Origin: Escherichia coli
GTDB lineage: Bacteria > Pseudomonadota > Gammaproteobacteria > Enterobacterales > Enterobacteriaceae
Assembly (NCBI RefSeq): GCF_002854065.1
Contig: NZ_CP024147.1
DNA: 64,000 nt
Strand: one strand, 5' to 3'
Shown piece after piece: positions 10,669-49,667 of this stretch. The position numbers and the translations under genes are program-made. Position 1 is the stretch's first letter; each line of letters starts with the position of its first letter. The notes under the pieces were generated by a model. It saw only the letters and a list, made by a program, of their open reading frames with translations, was not told where the DNA came from and ran no database searches.

Positions 10669-11013
10669 GTTTCATCTCCTTATTCCATATTCTCATTCTC
10701 CATAAACTTGCTATAAAAACATGATTAAAAAGTGATGATTACTATTTATAAAATAATGATTTTGTTATGAGCGAATAGCTATCAGCCACTTACACTAGTA
10801 CGTCATCTTGTCTATATACAGATTTGTAACTGTTGATATGTTTTACTTAAACACACCTCGTATTTCTTATAACACTTGTTTGGTAACTATTTTCAATACA
10901 AATCATATTTGTTAGTTCTTCATTAACACACTGCGAGTGTTTTGTTACTCCCCGCATATATTTTATTCTCTTGTTCGATTCTATTTTTCTTAATCGATCA
11001 TATAATTTTCTTG

Positions 11014-11193
11014 TTAGTCGGATTTACGAATCATGAGACTTATAATGGAAGGAATGAGACTAAGCGGCCAGGTTAAACCTGTAATTATTGCAGCAAACAA
11101 CCGATATGTTACTTTTTCTTCCGAGAAGATAAATATTAAAGTCGATGTCACAACCAGACCTATCAGGTAAGCTAACAGTAATTTATTGATCAC
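11014..11193 (-). CDS. Hypothetical small membrane protein (59 aa, two predicted helices)
   Basis: GTG start 5 nt after GGGAGG; translation MINKLLLAYLIGLVVTSTLIFIFSEEKVTYRLFAAIITGLTWPLSLIPSIISLMIRKSD; absent from the ORF track (below 60 aa). Confidence 0.45.
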   Translation of the reverse strand: MINKLLLAYLIGLVVTSTLIFIFSEEKVTYRLFAAIITGLTWPLSLIPSIISLMIRKSD

Positions 11194-11259
11194 TTTTACC
11201 TCCCCTTTCGATTTCTCTTTGAGCGGTCCTTTTAATCCAGGACCGCCTCATTATGAAAA

Positions 11260-12870
11260 CTATTTAATTCCCTCATCATTGATAAGGTTGGACATCTCTT
11301 TCAACATGAGAGTCATTGAAGCTTTCGACCAATTTAGCGGAATGATAGGGCTTGGCGCTTCATGCAAAGTTCCCGACTTGTGGATATAGTTATAGCTTTC
11401 GGGAAGTGCCATTTCTGGTACGCTCCTGCCATTTGCACCAATCATATTCTCGCCTGTTATTTGGGCCAATGATCTATTCATAAATTGTACTGAGTCATTC
11501 AAATACTCTTCTTTTCTTGATTCTTTATAAACAATTGCTGCTGATTTTGCATACCATGAGTCAAAAAACCATTCTGCTTCTGTTGATGGAATGAAGCTCT
11601 TTTCTCTTTTTGCATGCGAATTTTGATCGGTATCGGTTTTAATATCATTGAACCAAAAATTTGCCGACTGATAATTATCCTTCTCGTATCTTTTTATACC
11701 ATACGGACCTGCTAGTTTTTTAACTATTTTTAGAACTTGCTCTTTTCTTCTGGTGTTTATCTTTGAAAGATTTGCAGGATAAATAACATTAAGTAAAGCC
11801 GCATCGGCTTCTCTGTAATGTTTATCTTTTTCCAGATAACCTGGGGATTCTCCCCCTAAATCAAGCTGTAACGTTATTCTTTCATAACCTTTATCTATGA
11901 GGTGGTTCAACCTCGTTGTTGAAAGAGGTTCATCCAGTTCATTGGCTTTAGCTTCGCGTAGTAAATCAGAGACAAAAACAGATTCTTTCTTCGAGAGTAA
12001 GTTCGACAAACGTTCCAGTCCAGAGGTCACCAGTGCAACGGAAGATGTGTTTAATCGGGCATCTTCCTCCCACGCTCCGGAATCTTCCATAACATAGAAA
12101 TTGGCTTTATCCAGATAAGCAATCAGCAACGCAACCGATTTTAATCGGTCACCTTTTTGCCAATCTTCAGCGTTAATAGTACCAGTATTGATTGCTTGTA
12201 TAAGGAGATCAAGATAAAGACCTAACGCATCATTTTGTTTATGGTTCCACAGCTGCGGCTTGCCTTCTTCCTGCACATCTGCCATCACGGGGGAGTTGCT
12301 GTCAAATCGGATATGCACAGCATTCATTTGCCCGGGAATACCATCCAGTCGTTTTGGGTTGCTAATGATGTCCTGCATCCGCTTAATCTGGTCGGGCGTA
12401 GACATATAATCCCACAGGGTGAGCAGAACCTTTTTTGCGGCTACACTATTTCCCTGGTCTGATACTAATGCCATATAGCCCCATAAACTATCCCTCAGCC
12501 AGACAGCATCATAGTGGGTTTCTGCCGCTGTTTTGTCATCTTCGAAAGTAGAAGCAAGAATAAACGTTACCCAGGGTTTCTCCGTCAACGTTAACTTTCG
12601 TGTGTTTTCTGTTAATGTTAGCAATCCTTGAATTTCGTCTTTGGTATAGTGGCTCTTTATTTCATTTTGTAATTTGGCTGAGTGAATCAGAAGACGATAA
12701 TTAGGATACTTATCTGGATTTAACGATAAATAACTTTTATCTGTTGCTGCCCCCGTGGAATTAAGAATGTTAAATACAGATTCACTCGTCACTTCTGCCC
12801 CTGTCGCCTGGCATGTGCCGCACGAAAATATACCAGCGAGCAGAAGAGTTAATGCAGATTTCCCTTTCAT
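11260..12870 (-). CDS. Secreted or lipoprotein glycoside hydrolase family 15-like protein
   Basis: 536-aa ORF from MKGKSALTLLLAGIFSCGTCQA (signal peptide with Cys); GH15-type motifs (AVWLRDS; GAWEEDARLNTSSVALV). The track's N-terminal extension to 12939 reads into IS2 and is rejected. Confidence 0.6.
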   Translation of the reverse strand: MKGKSALTLLLAGIFSCGTCQATGAEVTSESVFNILNSTGAATDKSYLSLNPDKYPNYRLLIHSAKLQNEIKSHYTKDEIQGLLTLTENTRKLTLTEKPWVTFILASTFEDDKTAAETHYDAVWLRDSLWGYMALVSDQGNSVAAKKVLLTLWDYMSTPDQIKRMQDIISNPKRLDGIPGQMNAVHIRFDSNSPVMADVQEEGKPQLWNHKQNDALGLYLDLLIQAINTGTINAEDWQKGDRLKSVALLIAYLDKANFYVMEDSGAWEEDARLNTSSVALVTSGLERLSNLLSKKESVFVSDLLREAKANELDEPLSTTRLNHLIDKGYERITLQLDLGGESPGYLEKDKHYREADAALLNVIYPANLSKINTRRKEQVLKIVKKLAGPYGIKRYEKDNYQSANFWFNDIKTDTDQNSHAKREKSFIPSTEAEWFFDSWYAKSAAIVYKESRKEEYLNDSVQFMNRSLAQITGENMIGANGRSVPEMALPESYNYIHKSGTLHEAPSPIIPLNWSKASMTLMLKEMSNLINDEGIK

Positions 12871-13002
12871 AAAATATTCCATCAATCGTTTGTTAAAAGC
12901 GTAGATAACCATAGACTGGCCCCCTGAATCTCCAGACAACCAATATCACTTAAATAAGTGATAGTCTTAATACTAGTTTTTAGACTAGTCATTGGAGAAC
13001 AG

Positions 13003-13368
13003 ATGATTGATGTCTTAGGGCCGGAGAAACGCAGACGGCGTACCACACAGGAAAAGATCGCAATTGTTCAGCAGAGCTTTGAACCGGGGATGACGGTCTC
13101 CCTCGTTGCCCGGCAACATGGTGTAGCAGCCAGCCAGTTATTTCTCTGGCGTAAGCAATACCAGGAAGGAAGTCTTACTGCTGTCGCCGCCGGAGAACAG
13201 GTTGTTCCTGCCTCTGAACTTGCTGCCGCCATGAAGCAGATTAAAGAACTCCAGCGCCTGCTCGGCAAGAAAACGATGGAAAATGAACTCCTCAAAGAAG
13301 CCGTTGAATATGGACGGGCAAAAAAGTGGATAGCGCACGCGCCCTTATTGCCCGGGGATGGGGAGTAA
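13003..13368 (+). CDS. insC: IS2 protein InsC (OrfA)
   Basis: 121-aa [21 protein letters not shown]..., RBS GGAG upstream; the track ORF starts 15 codons earlier inside the terminal repeat. Confidence 0.95.
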
Positions 13369-14231
13369 GCTTAGTCAGCCGTTGTCTCCGGGTGTCGCGT
13401 GCGCAGTTGCACGTCATTCTCAGACGAACCGATGACTGGATGGATGGCCGCCGCAGTCGTCACACTGATGATACGGATGTGCTTCTCCGTATACACCATG
13501 TTATCGGAGAGCTGCCCACGTATGGTTATCGTCGGGTATGGGCGCTGCTTCGCAGACAGGCAGAACTTGATGGTATGCCTGCGATCAATGCCAAACGTGT
13601 TTACCGGATCATGCGCCAGAATGCGCTGTTGCTTGAGCGAAAACCTGCTGTACCGCCATCGAAACGGGCACATACAGGCAGAGTGGCCGTGAAAGAAAGC
13701 AATCAGCGATGGTGCTCTGACGGGTTCGAGTTCTGCTGTGATAACGGAGAGAGACTGCGTGTCACGTTCGCGCTGGACTGCTGTGATCGTGAGGCACTGC
13801 ACTGGGCGGTCACTACCGGCGGCTTCAACAGTGAAACAGTACAGGACGTCATGCTGGGAGCGGTGGAACGCCGCTTCGGCAACGATCTTCCGTCGTCTCC
13901 AGTGGAGTGGCTGACGGATAATGGTTCATGCTACCGGGCTAATGAAACACGCCAGTTCGCCCGGATGTTGGGACTTGAACCGAAGAACACGGCGGTGCGG
14001 AGTCCGGAGAGTAACGGAATAGCAGAGAGCTTCGTGAAAACGATAAAGCGTGACTACATCAGTATCATGCCCAAACCAGACGGGTTAACGGCAGCAAAGA
14101 ACCTTGCAGAGGCGTTCGAGCATTATAACGAATGGCATCCGCATAGTGCGCTGGGTTATCGCTCGCCACGGGAATATCTGCGGCAGCGGGCTTGTAATGG
14201 GTTAAGTGATAACAGATGTCTGGAAATATAG
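13326..14231 (+). CDS. insD: IS2 transposase InsD (OrfB), IS3 family
   Basis: 301-aa ORF overlapping insC in the -1 frame; DDE-type integrase core. Confidence 0.95.
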
Positions 14232-14439
14232 GGGCAAATCCAAACCACTTATTTAACAACTTGAAAATAAGGTATTTTACCTGGGTTGTTATAAAAGGAT
14301 TGCATTGCGTAAACGCTTTTTATTTACAAAATAATGGGGAAGTGTTACTGCGATTGCGAAAAGTCTGAACCGATTGAATTAAGATAATATAGAAAATCAG
14401 ATACAACAAAAATGGCAGGTTGATGAGGTGAAGATAAAT

Positions 14440-14513
14440 TGGAGCGGGCGAAGGGAATCGAACCCTCGTATAGAGCTTGGGAAGCTCTCGTTCTACCATT
14501 GAACTACGCCCGC
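14440..14513 (-). tRNA. glyU: tRNA-Gly (anticodon CCC)
   Basis: Minus-strand 74-nt sequence GCGGGCGTAGTTCAATGGTAGAACGAGAGCTTCCCAAGCTCTATACGAGGGTTCGATTCCCTTCGCCCGCTCCA; cloverleaf with CCC anticodon and encoded CCA. Confidence 0.97.
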
Positions 14514-14591
14514 TTCGAGATGCGTAAGGCATTATAAACCTTACGCTCTCCTTAGCAAGTGCCGCGCTGCTGACTGCTGATTAATTCGCCA

Positions 14592-15347
14592 TCAGCATTT
14601 TGGCTTGCTGCCCTGCGGCGGCAAGTAACGTAGCGGATCAATTGCCGTTGCACGGTAACGAATCTGGAAATGCAGGCGAACAGATGCCGCATCCGTGCTC
14701 CCCATGGTGGCGATTTTTTGCCCAGCCTTCACGCTTTGCCCATTATTTACCAGCATCGTGTCATTATGGGCGTAAGCCGTAATGTAATCTTCACTGTGTT
14801 TAATCATGATGAGATTACCGTAGCCACGCAGCTGGTTGCCCACATACACCACCTTTCCTGCACCCGCGGCGTAAATAGGTGTACCCCGTGGAGCAGAGAT
14901 ATCAATCCCTTTATTGCCGCCATCTGCTGTCGAATACGGCATGATAACTTTCCCTGTCGTTGGCCATAACCAACAACGTTGCCCTACTGGCGGCCAGGAA
15001 GATTTCGGTACCGCTGATGACGGTGTAACCGATGCGGTTTTGGTCGTTGATTTGGCGGTTGATTTACGTGTACTACTGCTACTTTTCGCCCCACCCAGTT
15101 TTAGTTTCTGACCAACTTCAATGGTGTAAGGGGGGGAAATGCCGTTCAGTCGCGCCAGCTCTTTTACGCTGGTTCCCGTGGTGCGCGAAATACGATATAG
15201 CGTATCCCCCCGTTTCACGGTGTAAACGGAGCCGGAATACGTTCCTGTATCGGATGATTTGCTACCCGAACAGCCCGCCAAAAGCAGTCCAACCGATAAC
15301 AACATCACGATACCCAGAGATTTTTTATTCAGGCGTCCCGCACTCAA
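14592..15347 (-). CDS. ygeR: LysM/M23-peptidase-family lipoprotein
   Basis: Lipoprotein signal (LLLAGCSG), LysM region, C-terminal M23 fold; TTG start at 15347 preceded by GAGGAAAG (the track extends to another TTG at 15371). Confidence 0.85.
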   Translation of the reverse strand: MSAGRLNKKSLGIVMLLSVGLLLAGCSGSKSSDTGTYSGSVYTVKRGDTLYRISRTTGTSVKELARLNGISPPYTIEVGQKLKLGGAKSSSSTRKSTAKSTTKTASVTPSSAVPKSSWPPVGQRCWLWPTTGKVIMPYSTADGGNKGIDISAPRGTPIYAAGAGKVVYVGNQLRGYGNLIMIKHSEDYITAYAHNDTMLVNNGQSVKAGQKIATMGSTDAASVRLHFQIRYRATAIDPLRYLPPQGSKPKC

Positions 15348-15489
15348 AATCTTTCCTCGCTTAAAAAACAAGACGCCATATCATAGCAGCCAGCCTCTTG
15401 ATACCCAATCTCTTGCTTCTGGAAAAACGCGGTAGGTGATGCTGCCAACTTACTGATTTAGTGTATGATGGTGTTTTTGAGGTGCTCCA

Positions 15490-15765
15490 GTGGCTTCTGT
15501 TTCTATCAGCTGTCCCTCCTGTTCAGCTACTGACGGGGTGGTGCGTAACGGCAAAAGCACTGCCGGACATCAGCGCTATCTCTGCTCTCACTGCCGTAAA
15601 ACATGGCAACTGCAGTTCACTTACACCGCTTCTCAACCCGGTACGCACCAGAAAATCATTGATATGGCCATGAATGGCGTTGGATGCCGGGCAACCGCCC
15701 GCATTATGGGCGTTGGCCTCAACACGATTTTCCGCCATTTAAAAAACTCAGGCCGCAGTCGGTAA
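15490..15765 (+). CDS. insA: IS1 protein InsA
   Basis: Protein identical to the other two InsA copies; GTG start. Confidence 0.95.
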
Positions 15766-16187
15766 CCTCGCGCATACAGCCGGGCAGTGACGTCATCGTC
15801 TGCGCGGAAATGGACGAACAGTGGGGATACGTCGGGGCTAAATCGCGCCAGCGCTGGCTGTTTTACGCGTATGACAGGCTCCGGAAGACGGTTGTTGCGC
15901 ACGTATTCGGTGAACGCACTATGGCGACGCTGGGGCGTCTTATGAGCCTGCTGTCACCCTTTGACGTGGTGATATGGATGACGGATGGCTGGCCGCTGTA
16001 TGAATCCCGCCTGAAGGGAAAGCTGCACGTAATCAGCAAGCGATATACGCAGCGAATTGAGCGGCATAACCTGAATCTGAGGCAGCACCTGGCACGGCTG
16101 GGACGGAAGTCGCTGTCGTTCTCAAAATCGGTGGAGCTGCATGACAAAGTCATCGGGCATTATCTGAACATAAAACACTATCAATAA
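15684..16187 (+). CDS. insB: IS1 transposase InsB
   Basis: Protein identical to the other two InsB copies. Confidence 0.95.
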
Positions 16188-16468
16188 GTTGGAGTCATTA
16201 CCAACGCGGTAATAGAGAAAGAGGTTAATTTCATTTGGCAAAGGGAAGTATCATCAGCAAAATTTTCGCTGTAGAGGTATCGAATTTCCTGACTTTTTTA
16301 CCCTATTTCCCATCCTGATGCGTAATAATCCCAATTTATCACATTGATTTTATCGCCACTCATATTGATACGTATCACTGTCCCTATTCAGAGTCCTGTT
16401 TCGTATCATATCTGTGTTTTTTTAACGTCATCACACTTCCTTCCTCCCCTAACGCTTATCGTCGTTTC

Positions 16469-16484
16469 TGGCGTAAATCTTGCC
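16469..16484 (+). promoter_or_regulatory. Candidate sigma-54 (-24/-12) promoter upstream of xdhA
   Basis: TGGCGTAAATCTTGCC: GG at 16470-16471 and GC at 16482-16483 with canonical spacing and TTGC at -12; about 55 bp upstream of the xdhA start. Confidence 0.5.
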
Positions 16485-16539
16485 TGCTTAGACTAAATCT
16501 TTGCCATAAGAACCAAATGTTCAAATCGAGGGGATTTCT

Positions 16540-18837
16540 ATGGAAGCGCGGGAAGCAACCGCTACGGGTGAATCATGCATGCGCGTTGATGCCATTGCTA
16601 AGGTCACCGGGCGGGCACGATATACTGACGATTATGTTATGGCGGGCATGTGTTATGCGAAATATGTACGTAGCCCTATCGCACATGGTTATGCCGTAAG
16701 TATTAATGATGAACAAGCCAGAAGTTTACCAGGCGTACTGGCGATTTTTACCTGGGAAGATGTGCCTGATATCCCATTCGCTACAGCTGGGCATGCATGG
16801 ACACTTGACGAAAACAAGCGCGATACCGCCGATCGCGCACTGCTAACTCGCCATGTTCGTCATCATGGTGACGCCGTTGCCATCGTCGTGGCCCGCGATG
16901 AACTCACGGCAGAAAAAGCGGCGCAATTGGTCAGCATTGAGTGGCAAGAATTACCCGTTATCACCACGCCAGAAGCGGCGCTGGCAGAGGACGCTGCACC
17001 AATCCATAACGGCGGCAATTTACTGAAACAAAGCACGATGTCGACGGGCAATGTCCAACAAACAATCGATGCCGCCGACTACCAGGTACAGGGGCACTAT
17101 CAGACTCCCGTTATTCAACATTGTCACATGGAAAGCGTAACATCGCTGGCGTGGATGGAGGATGACTCGCGAATTACCATCGTTTCCAGCACCCAGATCC
17201 CGCACATTGTTCGCCGCGTGGTTGGTCAGGCGCTGGATATTCCCTGGTCATGCGTACGAGTCATCAAACCATTTGTCGGTGGCGGTTTTGGTAATAAACA
17301 GGATGTACTGGAAGAGCCAATGGCGGCATTCCTGACCAGCAAGCTTGGCGGCATTCCGGTGAAAGTTTCCCTTAGCCGTGAAGAGTGTTTCCTCGCAACC
17401 CGTACCCGCCACGCTTTTACTATTGACGGGCAAATGGGCGTGAGCCGCGACGGAACATTGAAAGGTTATAGTCTGGATGTTCTGTCTAACACCGGCGCTT
17501 ATGCATCTCACGGGCACTCCATCGCTTCTGCGGGGGGGAATAAAGTCGCTTACCTTTATCCTCGTTGTGCCTACGCTTACAGTTCAAAGACCTGCTATAC
17601 CAACCTCCCCTCGGCTGGTGCGATGCGTGGTTATGGCGCGCCACAAGTCGTATTTGCCGTTGAGTCTATGCTTGATGACGCCGCGACAGCGTTAGGTATT
17701 GATCCTGTTGAAATTCGTTTACGCAACGCCGCACGCGAAGGAGATGCTAATCCGCTCACGGGCAAACGTATTTACAGCGCAGGGTTGCCGGAGTGTCTTG
17801 AAAAAGGCCGGAAAATCTTTGAATGGGAAAAACGCCGTGTAGAATGCCAGAACCAGCAAGGCAATTTACGCCGCGGCGTTGGCGTCGCCTGTTTTAGCTA
17901 CACCTCTAATACCTGGCCTGTCGGCGTAGAAATAGCAGGCGCGCGCCTTCTGATGAATCAGGATGGAACCATCAACGTGCAAAGCGGCGCGACGGAAATC
18001 GGTCAGGGTGCCGACACCGTCTTCTCGCAAATGGTGGCAGAAACCGTGGGGGTTCCGGTCAGCGACGTTCGCGTTATTTCAACACAAGATACCGACGTTA
18101 CGCCGTTCGATCCCGGCGCATTTGCCTCACGCCAGAGCTATGTTGCTGCGCCTGCGCTGCGCAGTGCGGCACTGTTATTAAAAGAGAAAATCATCGCTCA
18201 CGCCGCAGTCATGCTACATCAGTCAGCGATGAATCTGACCCTGATAAAAGGCCATATCGTGCTGGTTGAACGACCGGAAGAGCCGTTAATGTCGTTAAAA
18301 GATTTGGCGATGGACGCTTTCTACCACCCTGAACGCGGCGGGCAGCTCTCTGCTGAAAGCTCCATCAAAACCACCACTAACCCACCGGCGTTCGGCTGTA
18401 CCTTTGTTGATCTGACGGTCGATATTGCGCTGTGCAAAGTCACCATCAACCGCATCCTCAACGTTCATGATTCGGGGCATATTCTAAATCCGCTGCTGGC
18501 AGAAGGTCAGGTACACGGCGGAATGGGAATGGGCATTGGCTGGGCGCTATTTGAAGAGATGATCATCGATGCGAAAAGCGGCGTGGTCCGTAACCCCAAT
18601 CTGCTGGATTACAAAATGCCGACCATGCCGGATCTGCCACAACTGGAAAGCGCGTTCGTCGAAATCAATGAGCCGCAATCCGCATACGGACATAAGTCAC
18701 TGGGTGAGCCACCAATAATTCCTGTTGCCGCTGCTATTCGTAACGCGGTGAAGATGGCTACCGGTGTTGCAATCAATACACTGCCGCTGACGCCAAAACG
18801 GTTATATGAAGAGTTTCATCTGGCAGGATTGATTTGA
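16540..18837 (+). CDS. xdhA: Xanthine dehydrogenase, molybdopterin-binding subunit
   Basis: 765-aa ORF; GAGGGG Shine-Dalgarno before the ATG at 16540; an alternative start at 16579 (MRVDAIAKVTGRARYTDDY) gives 752 aa. Confidence 0.92.
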   Translation: MEAREATATGESCMRVDAIAKVTGRARYTDDYVMAGMCYAKYVRSPIAHGYAVSINDEQARSLPGVLAIFTWEDVPDIPFATAGHAWTLDENKRDTADRALLTRHVRHHGDAVAIVVARDELTAEKAAQLVSIEWQELPVITTPEAALAEDAAPIHNGGNLLKQSTMSTGNVQQTIDAADYQVQGHYQTPVIQHCHMESVTSLAWMEDDSRITIVSSTQIPHIVRRVVGQALDIPWSCVRVIKPFVGGGFGNKQDVLEEPMAAFLTSKLGGIPVKVSLSREECFLATRTRHAFTIDGQMGVSRDGTLKGYSLDVLSNTGAYASHGHSIASAGGNKVAYLYPRCAYAYSSKTCYTNLPSAGAMRGYGAPQVVFAVESMLDDAATALGIDPVEIRLRNAAREGDANPLTGKRIYSAGLPECLEKGRKIFEWEKRRVECQNQQGNLRRGVGVACFSYTSNTWPVGVEIAGARLLMNQDGTINVQSGATEIGQGADTVFSQMVAETVGVPVSDVRVISTQDTDVTPFDPGAFASRQSYVAAPALRSAALLLKEKIIAHAAVMLHQSAMNLTLIKGHIVLVERPEEPLMSLKDLAMDAFYHPERGGQLSAESSIKTTTNPPAFGCTFVDLTVDIALCKVTINRILNVHDSGHILNPLLAEGQVHGGMGMGIGWALFEEMIIDAKSGVVRNPNLLDYKMPTMPDLPQLESAFVEINEPQSAYGHKSLGEPPIIPVAAAIRNAVKMATGVAINTLPLTPKRLYEEFHLAGLI

Positions 18838-18847
18838 AGATAACATC

Positions 18848-19726
18848 ATGTTTGATTTTGCTTCTTACCATCGCGCAGCAACCCTTGCCGATGCCATCAA
18901 CCTGCTGGCTGACAACCCGCAGGCCAAACTGCTCGCCGGTGGCACTGACGTACTGATTCAGCTCCACCATCACAATGACCGTTATCGCCATATTGTTGAT
19001 ATTCATAATCTGGCGGAGCTGCGGGGAATTACGCTGGCGGAAGATGGCTCGCTACGTATCGGCTCTGCAACGACATTTACCCAGCTAATAGAAGATCCTA
19101 TAACTCAACGTCATCTCCCGGCGTTATGTGCTGCGGCCTCGTCCATTGCTGGACCGCAGATCCGTAACGTCGCTACCTACGGTGGAAATATTTGCAACGG
19201 TGCCACCAGCGCAGATTCTGCCACGCCAACGCTCATTTATGACGCGAAACTGGAGATCCACTCCCCACGCAGTGTTCGTTTCGTCCCGATTAATGGCTTT
19301 CACACCGGGCCGGGCAAAGTGTCTCTTGAGCATGACGAAATCCTTGTCGCCTTTCATTTTCCGCCCCAGCCGAAAGAACACGTGGGCAGCGCGCATTTTA
19401 AATATGCCATGCGCGACGCAATGGATATTTCAACGATTGGCTGCGCCGCACATTGCCGACTGGATAACGGCAATTTCAGCGAATTACGTCTGGCATTTGG
19501 TGTTGCCGCGCCAACGCCGATTCGCTGCCAACATGCCGAACAGACTGCACAAAATGCGCCATTAAACCTGCAAACGCTTGAAGCTATCAGCGAATCTGTC
19601 CTGCAAGATGTCGCCCCGCGTTCTTCATGGCGGGCCAGTAAAGAGTTTCGTCTGCATCTCATCCAGACGATGACCAAAAAAGTGATTAGCGAAGCCGTCG
19701 CCGCGGCGGGGGGAAAATTGCAATGA
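18848..19726 (+). CDS. xdhB: Xanthine dehydrogenase, FAD-binding subunit
   Basis: 292-aa ORF; FAD-binding CO-dehydrogenase-flavoprotein-type fold ([11 protein letters not shown]). Confidence 0.92.
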
Positions 19727-22020: not shown

Positions 22021-22389
22021 AGCTTTACCTTCCAGACTTACTTAAAAGTCGATCATTGAAGACGTTGATGGTTCACAGATCATGATGATATTAACTCAGG
22101 CGAAATTGGCTTTGATAAAAACATAAGATTTTTATCACTTTCTAATGAAATTATGGAAGAGATATCACATTTCTATATCAATATGAGAATTACGGCGGTG
22201 AGTTTATCAAACTGACGAGGGATAGCCTGCCCCTTTATCTTATTTCTGATACTTAGCAGCAAATAAATAACGCAATAAAAAAAGCCAAACGTTTTCGTAT
22301 TTTACAAACAACCGGAAGCTAGCATCAATTTGTGATCAACCCCACACATTATCCGTCAAATTAGTCTTTTGCAGCCCCGTGGATAATTC

Positions 22390-23743: not shown

Positions 23744-24940
23744 ATGTCCGTTTTCTCATTGAAGATTGATATCGCCGATAACAAATTTTTCAACGGCGAA
23801 ACATCACCGCTCTTTTCGCAAAGCCAGGCCAAACTGGCGCGCCAGTTCCACCAGAAAATAGCTGGTTATCGCCCAACACCGCTTTGTGCGCTGGACGATC
23901 TCGCAAACCTTTTTGGTGTGAAGAAAATTCTTGTCAAAGACGAATCAAAACGATTCGGTCTGAACGCCTTCAAAATGCTCGGCGGTGCGTACGCCATCGC
24001 TCAATTATTGTGTGAAAAATATCATCTTGATATCGAAACGCTGTCATTTGAGCACCTGAAAAATGCCATCGGCGAAAAAATGACTTTCGCGACCACCACC
24101 GACGGCAACCACGGGCGCGGTGTGGCGTGGGCAGCGCAGCAACTCGGACAGAATGCGGTGATTTACATGCCGAAAGGTTCTGCTCAGGAACGCGTTGACG
24201 CCATTCTGAACCTCGGTGCCGAGTGCATCGTCACGGATATGAACTATGACGATACCGTTCGCCTGACCATGCAACACGCGCAGCAGCACGGCTGGGAAGT
24301 GGTACAGGACACGGCATGGGAAGGTTACACCAAAATCCCAACCTGGATCATGCAAGGCTACGCAACCCTGGCAGATGAAGCCGTCGAGCAAATGCGTGAA
24401 ATGGGCGTAACCCCGACGCACGTTCTGCTGCAAGCCGGTGTCGGAGCAATGGCCGGTGGTGTGCTGGGTTATCTGGTCGACGTCTATAGCCCGCAAAATC
24501 TGCACAGCATTATTGTTGAACCTGACAAAGCTGACTGTATTTATCGCTCCGGCGTCAAAGGCGACATCGTCAACGTTGGCGGTGATATGGCCACCATCAT
24601 GGCGGGCCTGGCCTGTGGCGAACCTAACCCGCTGGGCTGGGAAATCCTACGTAACTGCGCCACCCAATTCATCTCCTGCCAGGACAGCGTTGCCGCATTA
24701 GGTATGCGCGTGCTGGGTAATCCGTACGGCAACGACCCGCGCATCATCTCCGGTGAATCCGGCGCTGTCGGTTTGGGCGTTCTCGCGGCGGTTCATTATC
24801 ACCCGCAACGTCAAAGCCTGATGGAAAAACTGGCGCTGAACAAAGATGCCGTAGTGCTGGTTATCAGCACTGAAGGTGACACCGACGTGAAGCACTATCG
24901 CGAAGTTGTCTGGGAAGGCAAACACGCTGTAGCACCTTAA
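23744..24940 (+). CDS. ygeX: Diaminopropionate ammonia-lyase (PLP-dependent, fold type II)
   Basis: 398-aa ORF; AAGGA Shine-Dalgarno upstream. Confidence 0.9.
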   Translation: MSVFSLKIDIADNKFFNGETSPLFSQSQAKLARQFHQKIAGYRPTPLCALDDLANLFGVKKILVKDESKRFGLNAFKMLGGAYAIAQLLCEKYHLDIETLSFEHLKNAIGEKMTFATTTDGNHGRGVAWAAQQLGQNAVIYMPKGSAQERVDAILNLGAECIVTDMNYDDTVRLTMQHAQQHGWEVVQDTAWEGYTKIPTWIMQGYATLADEAVEQMREMGVTPTHVLLQAGVGAMAGGVLGYLVDVYSPQNLHSIIVEPDKADCIYRSGVKGDIVNVGGDMATIMAGLACGEPNPLGWEILRNCATQFISCQDSVAALGMRVLGNPYGNDPRIISGESGAVGLGVLAAVHYHPQRQSLMEKLALNKDAVVLVISTEGDTDVKHYREVVWEGKHAVAP

Positions 24941-31111: not shown

Positions 31112-31213
31112 GAGTCTTTATGACCTCTCTGGGATAAATTACCCCCAACTTAATCCATCAGGAAGTAACGCAATTATCAGGCGTTATTAGCCCCTATAAA
31201 TAATGGAACCACT

Positions 31214-31792: not shown

Positions 31793-32016
31793 AAAACGTA
31801 GTTAAACGATTGCGTTCAAATATTTAACCCCTCCAGCACTCTTTATCATAATGATAAGGAATCACTGATTTTGAGAAAAGAGAAAAAGTGATAAATGGGC
31901 TGGCAATAATAATTTTCAGGAGTGATTTTAATTCTCATTTGGCACCTGTGAGTTCATTCACAAAAAGCCCTTAAGTTTCGAGCCGCCTCACATTTTTTTA
32001 TATTTCCCGCCAAACC

Positions 32017-46985: not shown

Positions 46986-47336
46986 TTGCATCCCTTTCAT
47001 TTAATGAGTTATGTCTTCTCAAATTTCGCGATGCAATAAACGGGCATATATTAGGTAGCATGACCGTTTTAATTATAATTTTGCGACTGAGTTCAAATTA
47101 TTGCCCCTCAATCTATGCCGCTTTCATTATTTCAACATTGCCGATCAAAAGAGCGCTATCCAGATAAAAACGATTAAATGCGAGAGTGCGACATGCCAGA
47201 ATGATTAATGAAATATCAATATGAGAAAATTACAGATAATTCCATTGTCAGGTTCTCTTGTCATTTTCGTGGTTTAAGCACGATTATGTGATTGCCTCCG
47301 CAATTCCTGTCTCTAACTCCCCTTCCTCGCAAAAAC

Positions 47337-47420: not shown

Positions 47421-48869
47421 ATGAGCGCCATAGATTCCCAACTTCCCTCATCTTCTGGGCAAGACCGCCCAACTGATGAGGTTGACCGCATATTATCACC
47501 AGGAAAGCTGATCATACTCGGTCTGCAACACGTCCTTGTCATGTACGCAGGTGCAGTCGCTGTTCCTCTTATGATTGGTGACCGACTGGGCCTCTCAAAA
47601 GAAGCTATTGCGATGCTCATTAGCTCGGATCTCTTTTGCTGCGGGATCGTCACATTATTGCAATGTATCGGTATCGGCCGCTTTATGGGGATCCGCCTGC
47701 CGGTGATTATGTCGGTGACCTTTGCTGCTGTAACACCAATGATAGCCATTGGGATGAACCCGGATATCGGCCTGCTGGGGATATTTGGTGCCACTATCGC
47801 CGCGGGTTTTATCACCACATTATTAGCGCCACTTATCGGTCGCTTGATGCCTTTATTCCCGCCACTGGTTACCGGTGTGGTTATTACTTCTATCGGACTT
47901 AGCATCATTCAGGTGGGTATTGACTGGGCCGCCGGAGGTAAAGGGAATCCGCAATATGGTAATCCCGTTTATTTAGGTATCTCCTTTGCCGTCTTAATTT
48001 TTATCTTGCTCATTACTCGCTATGCGAAAGGATTTATGTCCAACGTCGCCGTATTACTGGGGATTGTATTTGGCTTTTTACTTTCGTGGATGATGAATGA
48101 AGTCAATTTATCCGGGCTACATGATGCCTCGTGGTTTGCGATTGTTACGCCGATGTCGTTTGGTATGCCGATTTTCGATCCCGTTTCCATTCTGACCATG
48201 ACTGCCGTGTTAATCATCGTGTTTATCGAGTCGATGGGGATGTTCCTGGCACTGGGTGAAATAGTCGGTCGTAAACTCTCTTCGCACGATATTATTCGCG
48301 GGCTGCGTGTCGATGGCGTAGGGACAATGATAGGCGGAACGTTTAACAGCTTCCCCCATACGTCATTTTCTCAAAACGTTGGCCTGGTTAGCGTGACGCG
48401 CGTTCATAGCCGCTGGGTGTGTATTTCTTCGGGAATTATATTAATCCTGTTTGGCATGGTGCCAAAAATGGCGGTGCTGGTAGCCTCCATTCCGCAATTT
48501 GTGCTGGGCGGCGCTGGTCTGGTGATGTTCGGCATGGTACTGGCGACAGGGATTCGAATTCTGTCGAGCTGTAACTACACCACCAACCGTTACAACCTCT
48601 ATATTGTGGCGATCAGTCTCGGCGTTGGCATGACTCCGACGCTCTCTCACGATTTCTTTTCTAAGTTACCGGCCGTACTGCAACCGCTGCTACATAGCGG
48701 CATTATGCTCGCAACCCTTAGCGCCGTTGTGCTGAATGTCTTCTTTAATGGCTATCAGCATCATGCTGACCTGGTGAAGGAATCCGTCTCTGATAAAGAT
48801 TTAAAAGTCAGGACAGTACGTATGTGGCTTCTGATGCGCAAGCTGAAGAAAAATGAGCATGGAGAATAA
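47421..48869 (+). CDS. uacT: Uric acid:H+ symporter (NCS2/NAT family)
   Basis: 482-aa ORF from MSAIDSQLPSSSGQDRPTDE with AAAGGAG Shine-Dalgarno; the track ORF starts 43 codons upstream at a TTG. Confidence 0.92.
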   Translation: MSAIDSQLPSSSGQDRPTDEVDRILSPGKLIILGLQHVLVMYAGAVAVPLMIGDRLGLSKEAIAMLISSDLFCCGIVTLLQCIGIGRFMGIRLPVIMSVTFAAVTPMIAIGMNPDIGLLGIFGATIAAGFITTLLAPLIGRLMPLFPPLVTGVVITSIGLSIIQVGIDWAAGGKGNPQYGNPVYLGISFAVLIFILLITRYAKGFMSNVAVLLGIVFGFLLSWMMNEVNLSGLHDASWFAIVTPMSFGMPIFDPVSILTMTAVLIIVFIESMGMFLALGEIVGRKLSSHDIIRGLRVDGVGTMIGGTFNSFPHTSFSQNVGLVSVTRVHSRWVCISSGIILILFGMVPKMAVLVASIPQFVLGGAGLVMFGMVLATGIRILSSCNYTTNRYNLYIVAISLGVGMTPTLSHDFFSKLPAVLQPLLHSGIMLATLSAVVLNVFFNGYQHHADLVKESVSDKDLKVRTVRMWLLMRKLKKNEHGE

Positions 48870-48996: not shown

Positions 48997-49118
48997 ATGG
49001 TTTTTACCTGTCGACATCCGCTCAAAACGGGCGGTTGTCGATAAACGCTCACTTGGTTAATCATTTCACTCTTCAATTATCTATAATGATGAGTGATCAG
49101 AATTACATGTGAGAAATT

Positions 49119-49667
49119 ATGCAAACGGAACACGTCATTTTATTGAATGCACAGGGAGTTCCCACGGGTACGCTGGAAAAGTATGCCGCACACACGGCAG
49201 ACACCCGCTTACATCTCGCGTTCTCCAGTTGGCTGTTTAATGCCAAAGGACAATTATTAGTTACCCGTCGCGCTCTGAGCAAAAAAGCATGGCCTGGCGT
49301 GTGGACTAACTCGGTTTGTGGGCACCCACAACTGGGAGAAAGCAACGAAGACGCGGTGATCCGCCGTTGCCGTTATGAGCTTGGCGTGGAAATTACGCCT
49401 CCTGAATCTATCTATCCTGACTTTCGCTATCGCGCCACCGATCCGAATGGCATTGTGGAAAATGAAGTGTGTCCGGTATTTGCCGCACGCACCACCAGTG
49501 CGTTACAGATCAACGATGATGAAGTGATGGATTATCAATGGTGTGATTTAGCTGATGTATTACGCGGTATTGATGCCACGCCATGGGCGTTCAGTCCGTG
49601 GATGGTGATGCAGGCGACAAATCGCGAAGCCAGAATACGATTATCTGCATTTACCCAGCTTAAATAA
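49119..49667 (+). CDS. idi: Isopentenyl-diphosphate delta-isomerase (Nudix fold)
   Basis: 182-aa ORF starting [25 protein letters not shown]. Confidence 0.95.

Follow-up and report, generated by a model that had tools for sequence, protein, structure and literature searches.

The window, by which we mean the whole 64,000-nucleotide stretch of Escherichia coli contig NZ_CP024147.1 that was analysed, carries an IS1 element between the divergent genes actS (formerly ygeR) and xdhA. The features from actS to the right end of the insertion are the following.

14592..15347, minus strand: actS, intact, encoding an amidase activator lipoprotein, with a TTG start at 15347
15374..15408, minus strand: core promoter of actS, with the transcription start site (TSS) at 15374, the -10 element TATGAT at 15385-15380 and the -35 element TTGGGT at 15408-15403
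15426..15434, unstranded: 9-bp target-site duplication, left copy, AACGCGGTA, abutting IS1
15435..16202, plus strand: complete IS1 of 768 bp, IS1B-type, with IRL towards actS and IRR towards xdhA
15435..15457, plus strand: IRL, an imperfect repeat in which 18 of 23 positions agree with the right end read in reverse complement
15490..15765, plus strand: insA, 91 aa, with the A6C -1 frameshift motif at 15741-15747
15684..16187, plus strand: insB' frame, -1 relative to insA, giving the InsAB' transposase by frameshifting
16180..16202, minus strand: IRR, located by comparison of the two ends
16203..16211, unstranded: 9-bp target-site duplication, right copy, AACGCGGTA

Both ends of the element are canonical when read from the letters, the left one starting with GGTGATGCTGCC at 15435 and the right one finishing with GGAGTCATTACC at 16202. 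Apart from the two copies flush against IS1, the 9-bp sequence AACGCGGTA is absent from the 64-kb window. When the element and one repeat were removed in silico, the resulting 200 bp were identical at 200 of 200 positions to the uninterrupted loci of seven public E. coli contigs (L003-L009), which are loci that encode exactly the XdhA of the window. The insA and insB' frames both matched the IS1 transposase family NCBIfam NF033558, at profile positions 1-81 and 76-199, respectively, and the copy shows 100% identity over its 768 bp to copies annotated as 'IS1-like element IS1B' on E. coli chromosomes and plasmids. Length and ends, the insA-insB' pair with its A6C motif, the 9-bp duplication and the near-identity to reference copies all identify the element as IS1, and it is a real, complete and ordinary insertion of an already known kind.

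A 39-nt IS1 end was found at three places in the window, at 8150-8188 (minus strand), 8941-8979 (minus strand) and 15435-15473 (plus strand), and the three IS1 copies are mutually 100% identical. The original prediction had described the third IS1 copy of the window, bordered by a perfect 9-bp duplication, at 87 bp upstream of ygeR and about 270 bp from a candidate sigma-54 promoter of xdhABC. This description was confirmed, with 87 nt between the actS TTG and IS1 and 267 nt between the last IS1 base and the TGGC (16469) of the xdhA promoter (258 nt when counted from the outer edge of the duplication). The other insertion sequences of the window are listed below.

7421..8188, minus strand: IS1 copy 1, with the 9-bp duplication GCATAACTT
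8212..8979, minus strand: IS1 copy 2, without a duplication
12912..14242: complete IS2 of 1331 bp, about 200 bp from glyU

Copies 1 and 2 are identical, have the same orientation and lie 23 bp apart. Copy 2 cuts short a type III secretin gene (8975-9922), and the resulting 315-aa product was seen on no more than five public contigs, all of them short. The glyU gene is located at 14440-14513, to the left of actS, and was the sole RNA family match in an Rfam search of 14200-16700.

Neither the left nor the right junction of the insertion was found in 5,426 complete E. coli genomes, and the arrangement of the ETT2 remnant seen in the window was not found in complete RefSeq E. coli genomes. We compared positions 1-19108 of the window with positions 3762000-3782000 (L098) of E. 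coli CUWW06 (NZ_CP182139.1; wastewater, Thailand), and a single mismatch was observed in the approximately 14 kb of non-IS sequence aligned in this 20-kb stretch. CUWW06 shares IS1 copy 1, inserted at the same site, but has neither copy 2 nor copy 3. Its IS2 is 100% identical to that of the window and is inserted at another point, after window position 11190 instead of 12911, and its ETT2 remnant shows IS-adjacent deletions. A Shigella origin of the window, at first suspected from the numerous identical IS1 copies and from the lack of the junction in the 5,426 E. coli genomes, was rejected on the strength of this comparison, the host being E. coli. The DNA between IS2 and glyU in the window also differs from CUWW06, which suggests an IS2-associated rearrangement of the ETT2 remnant. 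Judging from the three identical copies and from the near-identical CUWW06 without this copy, the IS1 insertion is recent. Because CUWW06 is near-identical and lacks the insertion, it is a natural near-isogenic comparator suited to an expression comparison.

Control regions on either side of the insertion

The empty actS-xdhA intergenic region is 415 bp long and has a GC content of 39%, compared with 50% for the whole window. Homology with other Escherichia species and with Citrobacter species extends from actS to approximately 15416-15426 and resumes at approximately 16326-16334, where the first of the conserved upstream sites of xdhA begins (site A, below). The only intergenic part without cross-species homology consists of 16212-16325 (114 bp) and 15427-15434 (8 bp), and IS1 is thus positioned at the actS-side edge of a spacer of about 120 bp that is not conserved and that separates the two regulatory modules. 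A sigma-70-like sequence, TTGGCA-17-CAAAAT, is present in this spacer to the right of IS1 at 16235-16263 on the plus strand, directed towards xdhA, as a match to the consensus only.

On the actS side, the gene product scored 454.9 bits against the ActS family NCBIfam NF040883 (cut-off 375). In the Reg-Seq study, which used plasmid constructs and a limited set of conditions, a single RACE-derived TSS at K-12 position 2999918 was taken for ygeR (Ireland et al., 2020, PMC7567609). An alignment of K-12 to the window places this TSS at 15374 and the edge of IS1 at -61. The same study reported footprints at -10 and -35, which agree with the TATGAT and TTGGGT hexamers, none upstream of -54, and the architecture (0,0), that is, no transcription factor sites in the mutagenised region from -115 to +45 (PMC7567609).

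On the xdhA side, the region contains the following features.

16212..16325, unstranded: AT-rich spacer, 37% GC, without cross-species homology
16337..16347, plus strand: site A, TATCACATTGA, predicted enhancer site, 132 bp from TGGC
16360..16370, minus strand: site B, TATCAATATGA, predicted enhancer site, 109 bp from TGGC
16430..16440, plus strand: conserved ATCACACTTCC box (ATCACA), preceded by a T-run, recognised by inspection of the anchored sequences
16468..16484, plus strand: sigma-54 promoter of xdhA, CTGGCGTAAATCTTGCC, with -24 GG and -12 GC
16579..18837, plus strand: xdhA, intact, counted from the start used in K-12, with an alternative in-frame ATG call at 16540

The spacing of the -24 and -12 elements is canonical (TGGCGT-N5-TTGCC at 16469-16484), and the 17-mer CTGGCGTAAATCTTGCC is identical to the motif for xdhA in a sigma-54 ChIP-seq study of K-12 (Bonocora et al., 2015, PMC4591121), which makes this promoter firmer than the candidate originally proposed. 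Sigma-54 promoters are described upstream of both xdhABC and ygeWXY, and the YgeV iModulon includes both operons (PMC10602906). A TGGCGT-N5-TTGC promoter approximately 80-125 bp before xdhA is present in 33 of the 34 genomes that were scanned, which range from Escherichia to Morganella, Edwardsiella and Aeromonas, the exception being Serratia oryzae (L043), in which only a different match, at -209, was found. The xdhB, xdhC and ygeV genes and the rest of the downstream yge/ygf cluster are full-length open reading frames, and the intact ygeV encodes a sigma-54 activation domain.

Our literature search found no paper mapping any YgeV binding site; therefore, the xdhA loci of other species were fetched and compared. 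The upstream regions of the window and of 27 other genomes of Enterobacterales and Aeromonas (28 in total) were anchored at the promoter, and 260 bp were examined in each. Two conserved TATCA-N3-TGA sites, usually inverted and 22-23 bp apart, were found upstream of the xdhA promoter in these 28 anchored sequences. The regions contain 51 exact sites, all of them between -153 and -108 from TGGC, compared with 0.3 expected from composition-matched shuffles, and no further TATCA-N3-TGA was present elsewhere in the 260 bp of any of the 28 sequences. In the 64-kb window the motif occurs 13 times against 1.9 expected, a 7-fold enrichment, and eight of these 13 sites are located in the four spacers bearing the sigma-54 promoters of xdhA, ygeW, ygfK and ygfT. 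Instances near promoters of the cluster include those at 16337-16347, 16360-16370, 22080-22090, 22176-22186, 22205-22215, 31844-31856 and 47214-47224.

The conservation of sites A and B points to a role as enhancer sites of the sigma-54 activator of the cluster, most plausibly YgeV, and TATCA-N3-TGA is probably the predicted YgeV enhancer box of the whole YgeV regulon. As the literature that we found maps no YgeV binding site, the assignment of the two sites to YgeV is made by inference only. The motif was derived in the present analysis, and no description of it was found in the literature searched. An earlier candidate activator site, the palindrome TGATACGTATCA (16366-16377), which overlaps site B, was dropped in favour of the cross-species motif. 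A partial resemblance of TATCA-N3-TGA to AT-rich Fur-type repeats was considered. A perfectly palindromic instance, TATCATCTTGATA, is located at 24020-24032 within the coding region of ygeX and could be a chance occurrence or an internal regulatory site. The ATCACACTTCC box lies between sites A and B and the sigma-54 promoter and is found from Escherichia to Aeromonas; its position would be typical of an IHF site.

Predicted effects of the insertion on actS and xdhABC

Taken as a whole, the locus is best explained by a recent, simple IS1 transposition into a spacer that belongs to neither regulatory module, a reading to which we give a probability of roughly 0.7. An active-looking IS1 of the IS1B type would have transposed recently into the AT-rich spacer between the divergent control regions of actS and xdhABC. 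To the left of the element, the TSS, -10 and -35 of actS are still joined to the gene, since the edge of IS1 at -61 leaves the core promoter with actS. To the right, both predicted enhancer sites, the ATCACA box and the -24/-12 promoter still stand together before xdhA. IS1 lies neither between a promoter and its cis-acting sites nor inside such sites, as it is located in unconserved DNA, at -61 from the actS TSS and outside site A, with 125 nt from the duplication to that site. The comparative evidence marks the host DNA at the insertion site as seemingly dispensable for both neighbouring promoters.

The alternative that retains most weight, although we regard it as unlikely, is an altered expression of actS, which the original prediction had also raised, either because IS1 cuts off a sigma-E-type promoter or other elements beyond -61 or because it places an IS1 end beside the core promoter. 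EcoCyc places a putative sigma-E consensus 186 nt before the actS TTG, as cited by Gurnani Serrano et al. (2021, PMC8360153), who argue that ActS matters under envelope stress. This position maps to approximately 16311, beyond IS1 as seen from actS, and a weak terminator-like hairpin is present on the minus strand at the IRR junction. However, no match of at least 9 of 12 to GGAACTT-N15-17-TCAAA was found near 16311, the best matches (9 of 12) being elsewhere, and the stretch around this position is without cross-species homology, even between Escherichia species. Moreover, the experimentally mapped TSS is retained with its -10 and -35, the Reg-Seq footprints do not extend beyond -54, and natural strains have an intact actS with IS1 even nearer, at 15412 (-38) and at 15428. 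The effect of IS1 on the main actS promoter is probably small, and an effect on stress-induced transcription of actS is possible, if weakly supported.

It is considerably less probable that IS1 cuts xdhABC off from activator (YgeV) sites upstream of it, a separation that the original prediction had suggested for xdhA, and thereby lowers or abolishes induction of the operon. The idea is prompted by the position of IS1 upstream of a ChIP-seq-supported sigma-54 promoter, by the requirement of such promoters for upstream activator sites, and by the lack of an experimental mapping of YgeV sites in the literature that we found. The comparative evidence contradicts it: the sole conserved upstream elements, 109-132 bp from the -24 element, are on the promoter side of IS1, so that xdhA is not separated from them. 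Neither the 114 bp from IS1 to these elements (16212-16325) nor the final 8 bp on the actS side (15427-15434) is conserved even between Escherichia species, and TATCA-N3-TGA is absent from the actS side and from the interior of IS1. The other three promoters of the cluster have the motif approximately 170-310 bp upstream, the 310 bp referring to one site between ygeV and ygeW.

Least probable of all is that IS1 drives xdhABC independently of sigma-54, by read-through from its own promoter, which was detected at IRL (15442-15469), or from a hybrid promoter at IRR: insA and insB' are oriented towards xdhA and IS1 ends reportedly can form hybrid promoters, but the element's own promoter is weak and under repression by InsA, xdhA begins only after some 375 nt of untranslated DNA, and when the region was scanned for promoters and terminators, no outward or hybrid sigma-70 promoter was detected at the two IS1 ends and no site spanning a junction, including that at IRR.

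Returning to the reading of a simple insertion between two intact modules, little or no immediate effect on the sigma-54- and YgeV-dependent expression of xdhABC is predicted, because the conserved sites, the ATCACA box and the promoter are kept together, and we infer that xdhABC expression is unchanged by IS1. As a counterpoint, enhancer-dependent promoters can need a particular DNA bending or topology, and the 777 bp inserted at a distance of 125 nt might disturb it. As an insertion, the element is of little importance, as IS1 is common and neither promoter is hit in its functional parts. A by-product of the analysis is that the enhancer sites of the xdhA promoter, and probably those of the YgeV regulon as a whole, can now be predicted at the sequence level.

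IS1 beside actS and loss of the purine/urate cluster in E. coli

IS1 is present in 4,970 of the 5,426 complete E. coli genomes, with a median of 11 places among the carriers. Within approximately 700 bp to the right of actS, an IS1 was found in 21 complete genomes in the same orientation as in the window and in 71 in the opposite one (about 92 of 5,426, or about 1.7%). Eighteen of these approximately 92 loci were inspected and their junctions were mapped on the window. At 17 of them (L001, L078-L087, L092-L097) IS1 joins distant DNA without a target duplication, so that they represent deletion junctions, with 15-34 kb removed; the deletions take out the block from xdhA to ygfT and sometimes extend through uacT and idi. 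The remaining locus, CUVM53, is an IS1-IS1 inversion. No simple IS1 insertion with an intact cluster was found among the 18 inspected loci, and the right-hand junction of a simple insertion in the same orientation was found in none of the complete genomes.

The left breakpoints, which are partly forced to cluster by the search bound of at most 700 bp from actS, map to window positions 15412, 15428, 16245, 16293-16297, 16322, 16353, 16362, 16378, 16395, 16570, 16650 and 16749, with 15412, 16296/16297, 16322 and 16362 being recurrent. The right breakpoints are located at 31171 (before mocA), 45870 (in ygfT), 47007-47086 (in the ygfT-uacT spacer), 47898-48144 (in uacT) and 49087-49667 (around idi). 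The IS1 variants at the inspected loci differ, with 93-99.7% identity to the window copy, and are present in both orientations. Of the 5,426 complete genomes, 123 lack the interior of xdhA. Our literature search found no published IS1 deletions of xdhA.

In the window, IS1 keeps its duplication and both original flanks, and therefore no deletion or inversion has occurred here. The window copy is the undeleted, intact state and at most a potential deletion precursor. Since an IS1 in this position is, in other E. coli, the mark of a deleted xdh-ygf cluster, the long-term consequence of the insertion is more likely to be structural than regulatory, in that IS1 at this site could seed loss of the purine/urate cluster. 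A broader and more tentative reading, for which we see somewhat less than even odds, is that the actS-xdhA spacer is a hot region for IS1 targeting and that the window represents a rarely seen intact precursor of a recurrent excision of the 15-34 kb YgeV-regulated cluster. The excision would be carried out by IS1 residing in the spacer or by IS1 reaching into it from the spacers at ygfT-uacT and idi, both routes being part of the same tentative reading.

Should the remaining loci resemble the 18 that were inspected, IS1 beside actS could explain as many as about three quarters of the 123 genomes that lack xdhA, and, if this is true, it would suggest a niche-dependent selection for loss of the purine/urate catabolism cluster. 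Another by-product of the analysis is that IS1 at actS is tightly linked to the natural loss of the cluster for anaerobic urate/purine degradation, a pathway currently attracting interest in gut microbiology.

Comparison with known systems

The element resembles the known members of the IS1 family (IS1A and IS1B, from E. coli K-12 and from plasmids) in its length of 768 bp, its imperfect inverted repeats of about 23 bp, its insA and insB' frames with the A6C -1 frameshift motif and its 9-bp target duplication in AT-rich DNA. The element itself shows no difference, and novelty is confined to the insertion site.

The activation of bgl by IS1 or IS5 and the IS elements upstream of flhDC are examples of regulatory IS insertions. 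The likeness of the present locus to these is only positional, in that an IS lies in an AT-rich divergent promoter region. In contrast, the IS1 of the window is located outside both conserved modules.

The adjacent deletions and inversions made by IS1, classically in the gal region, through intramolecular transposition, are resembled by the IS1 that other E. coli have at this site or up to a few hundred bp from it, which is without a duplication. Some pairs of E. coli loci share one junction and differ at the other, which is the signature of IS1 adjacent deletion. The window copy differs from these in retaining the duplication and both flanks.

Finally, although activator-DNA contacts at xdhA are predicted only, the promoter resembles enhancer-dependent sigma-54 promoters such as glnAp2 with its NtrC sites: it has a -24 GG and -12 GC core, paired upstream sites about two helical turns apart and approximately 110-130 bp upstream, and the gene of an activator, ygeV, in its own cluster.
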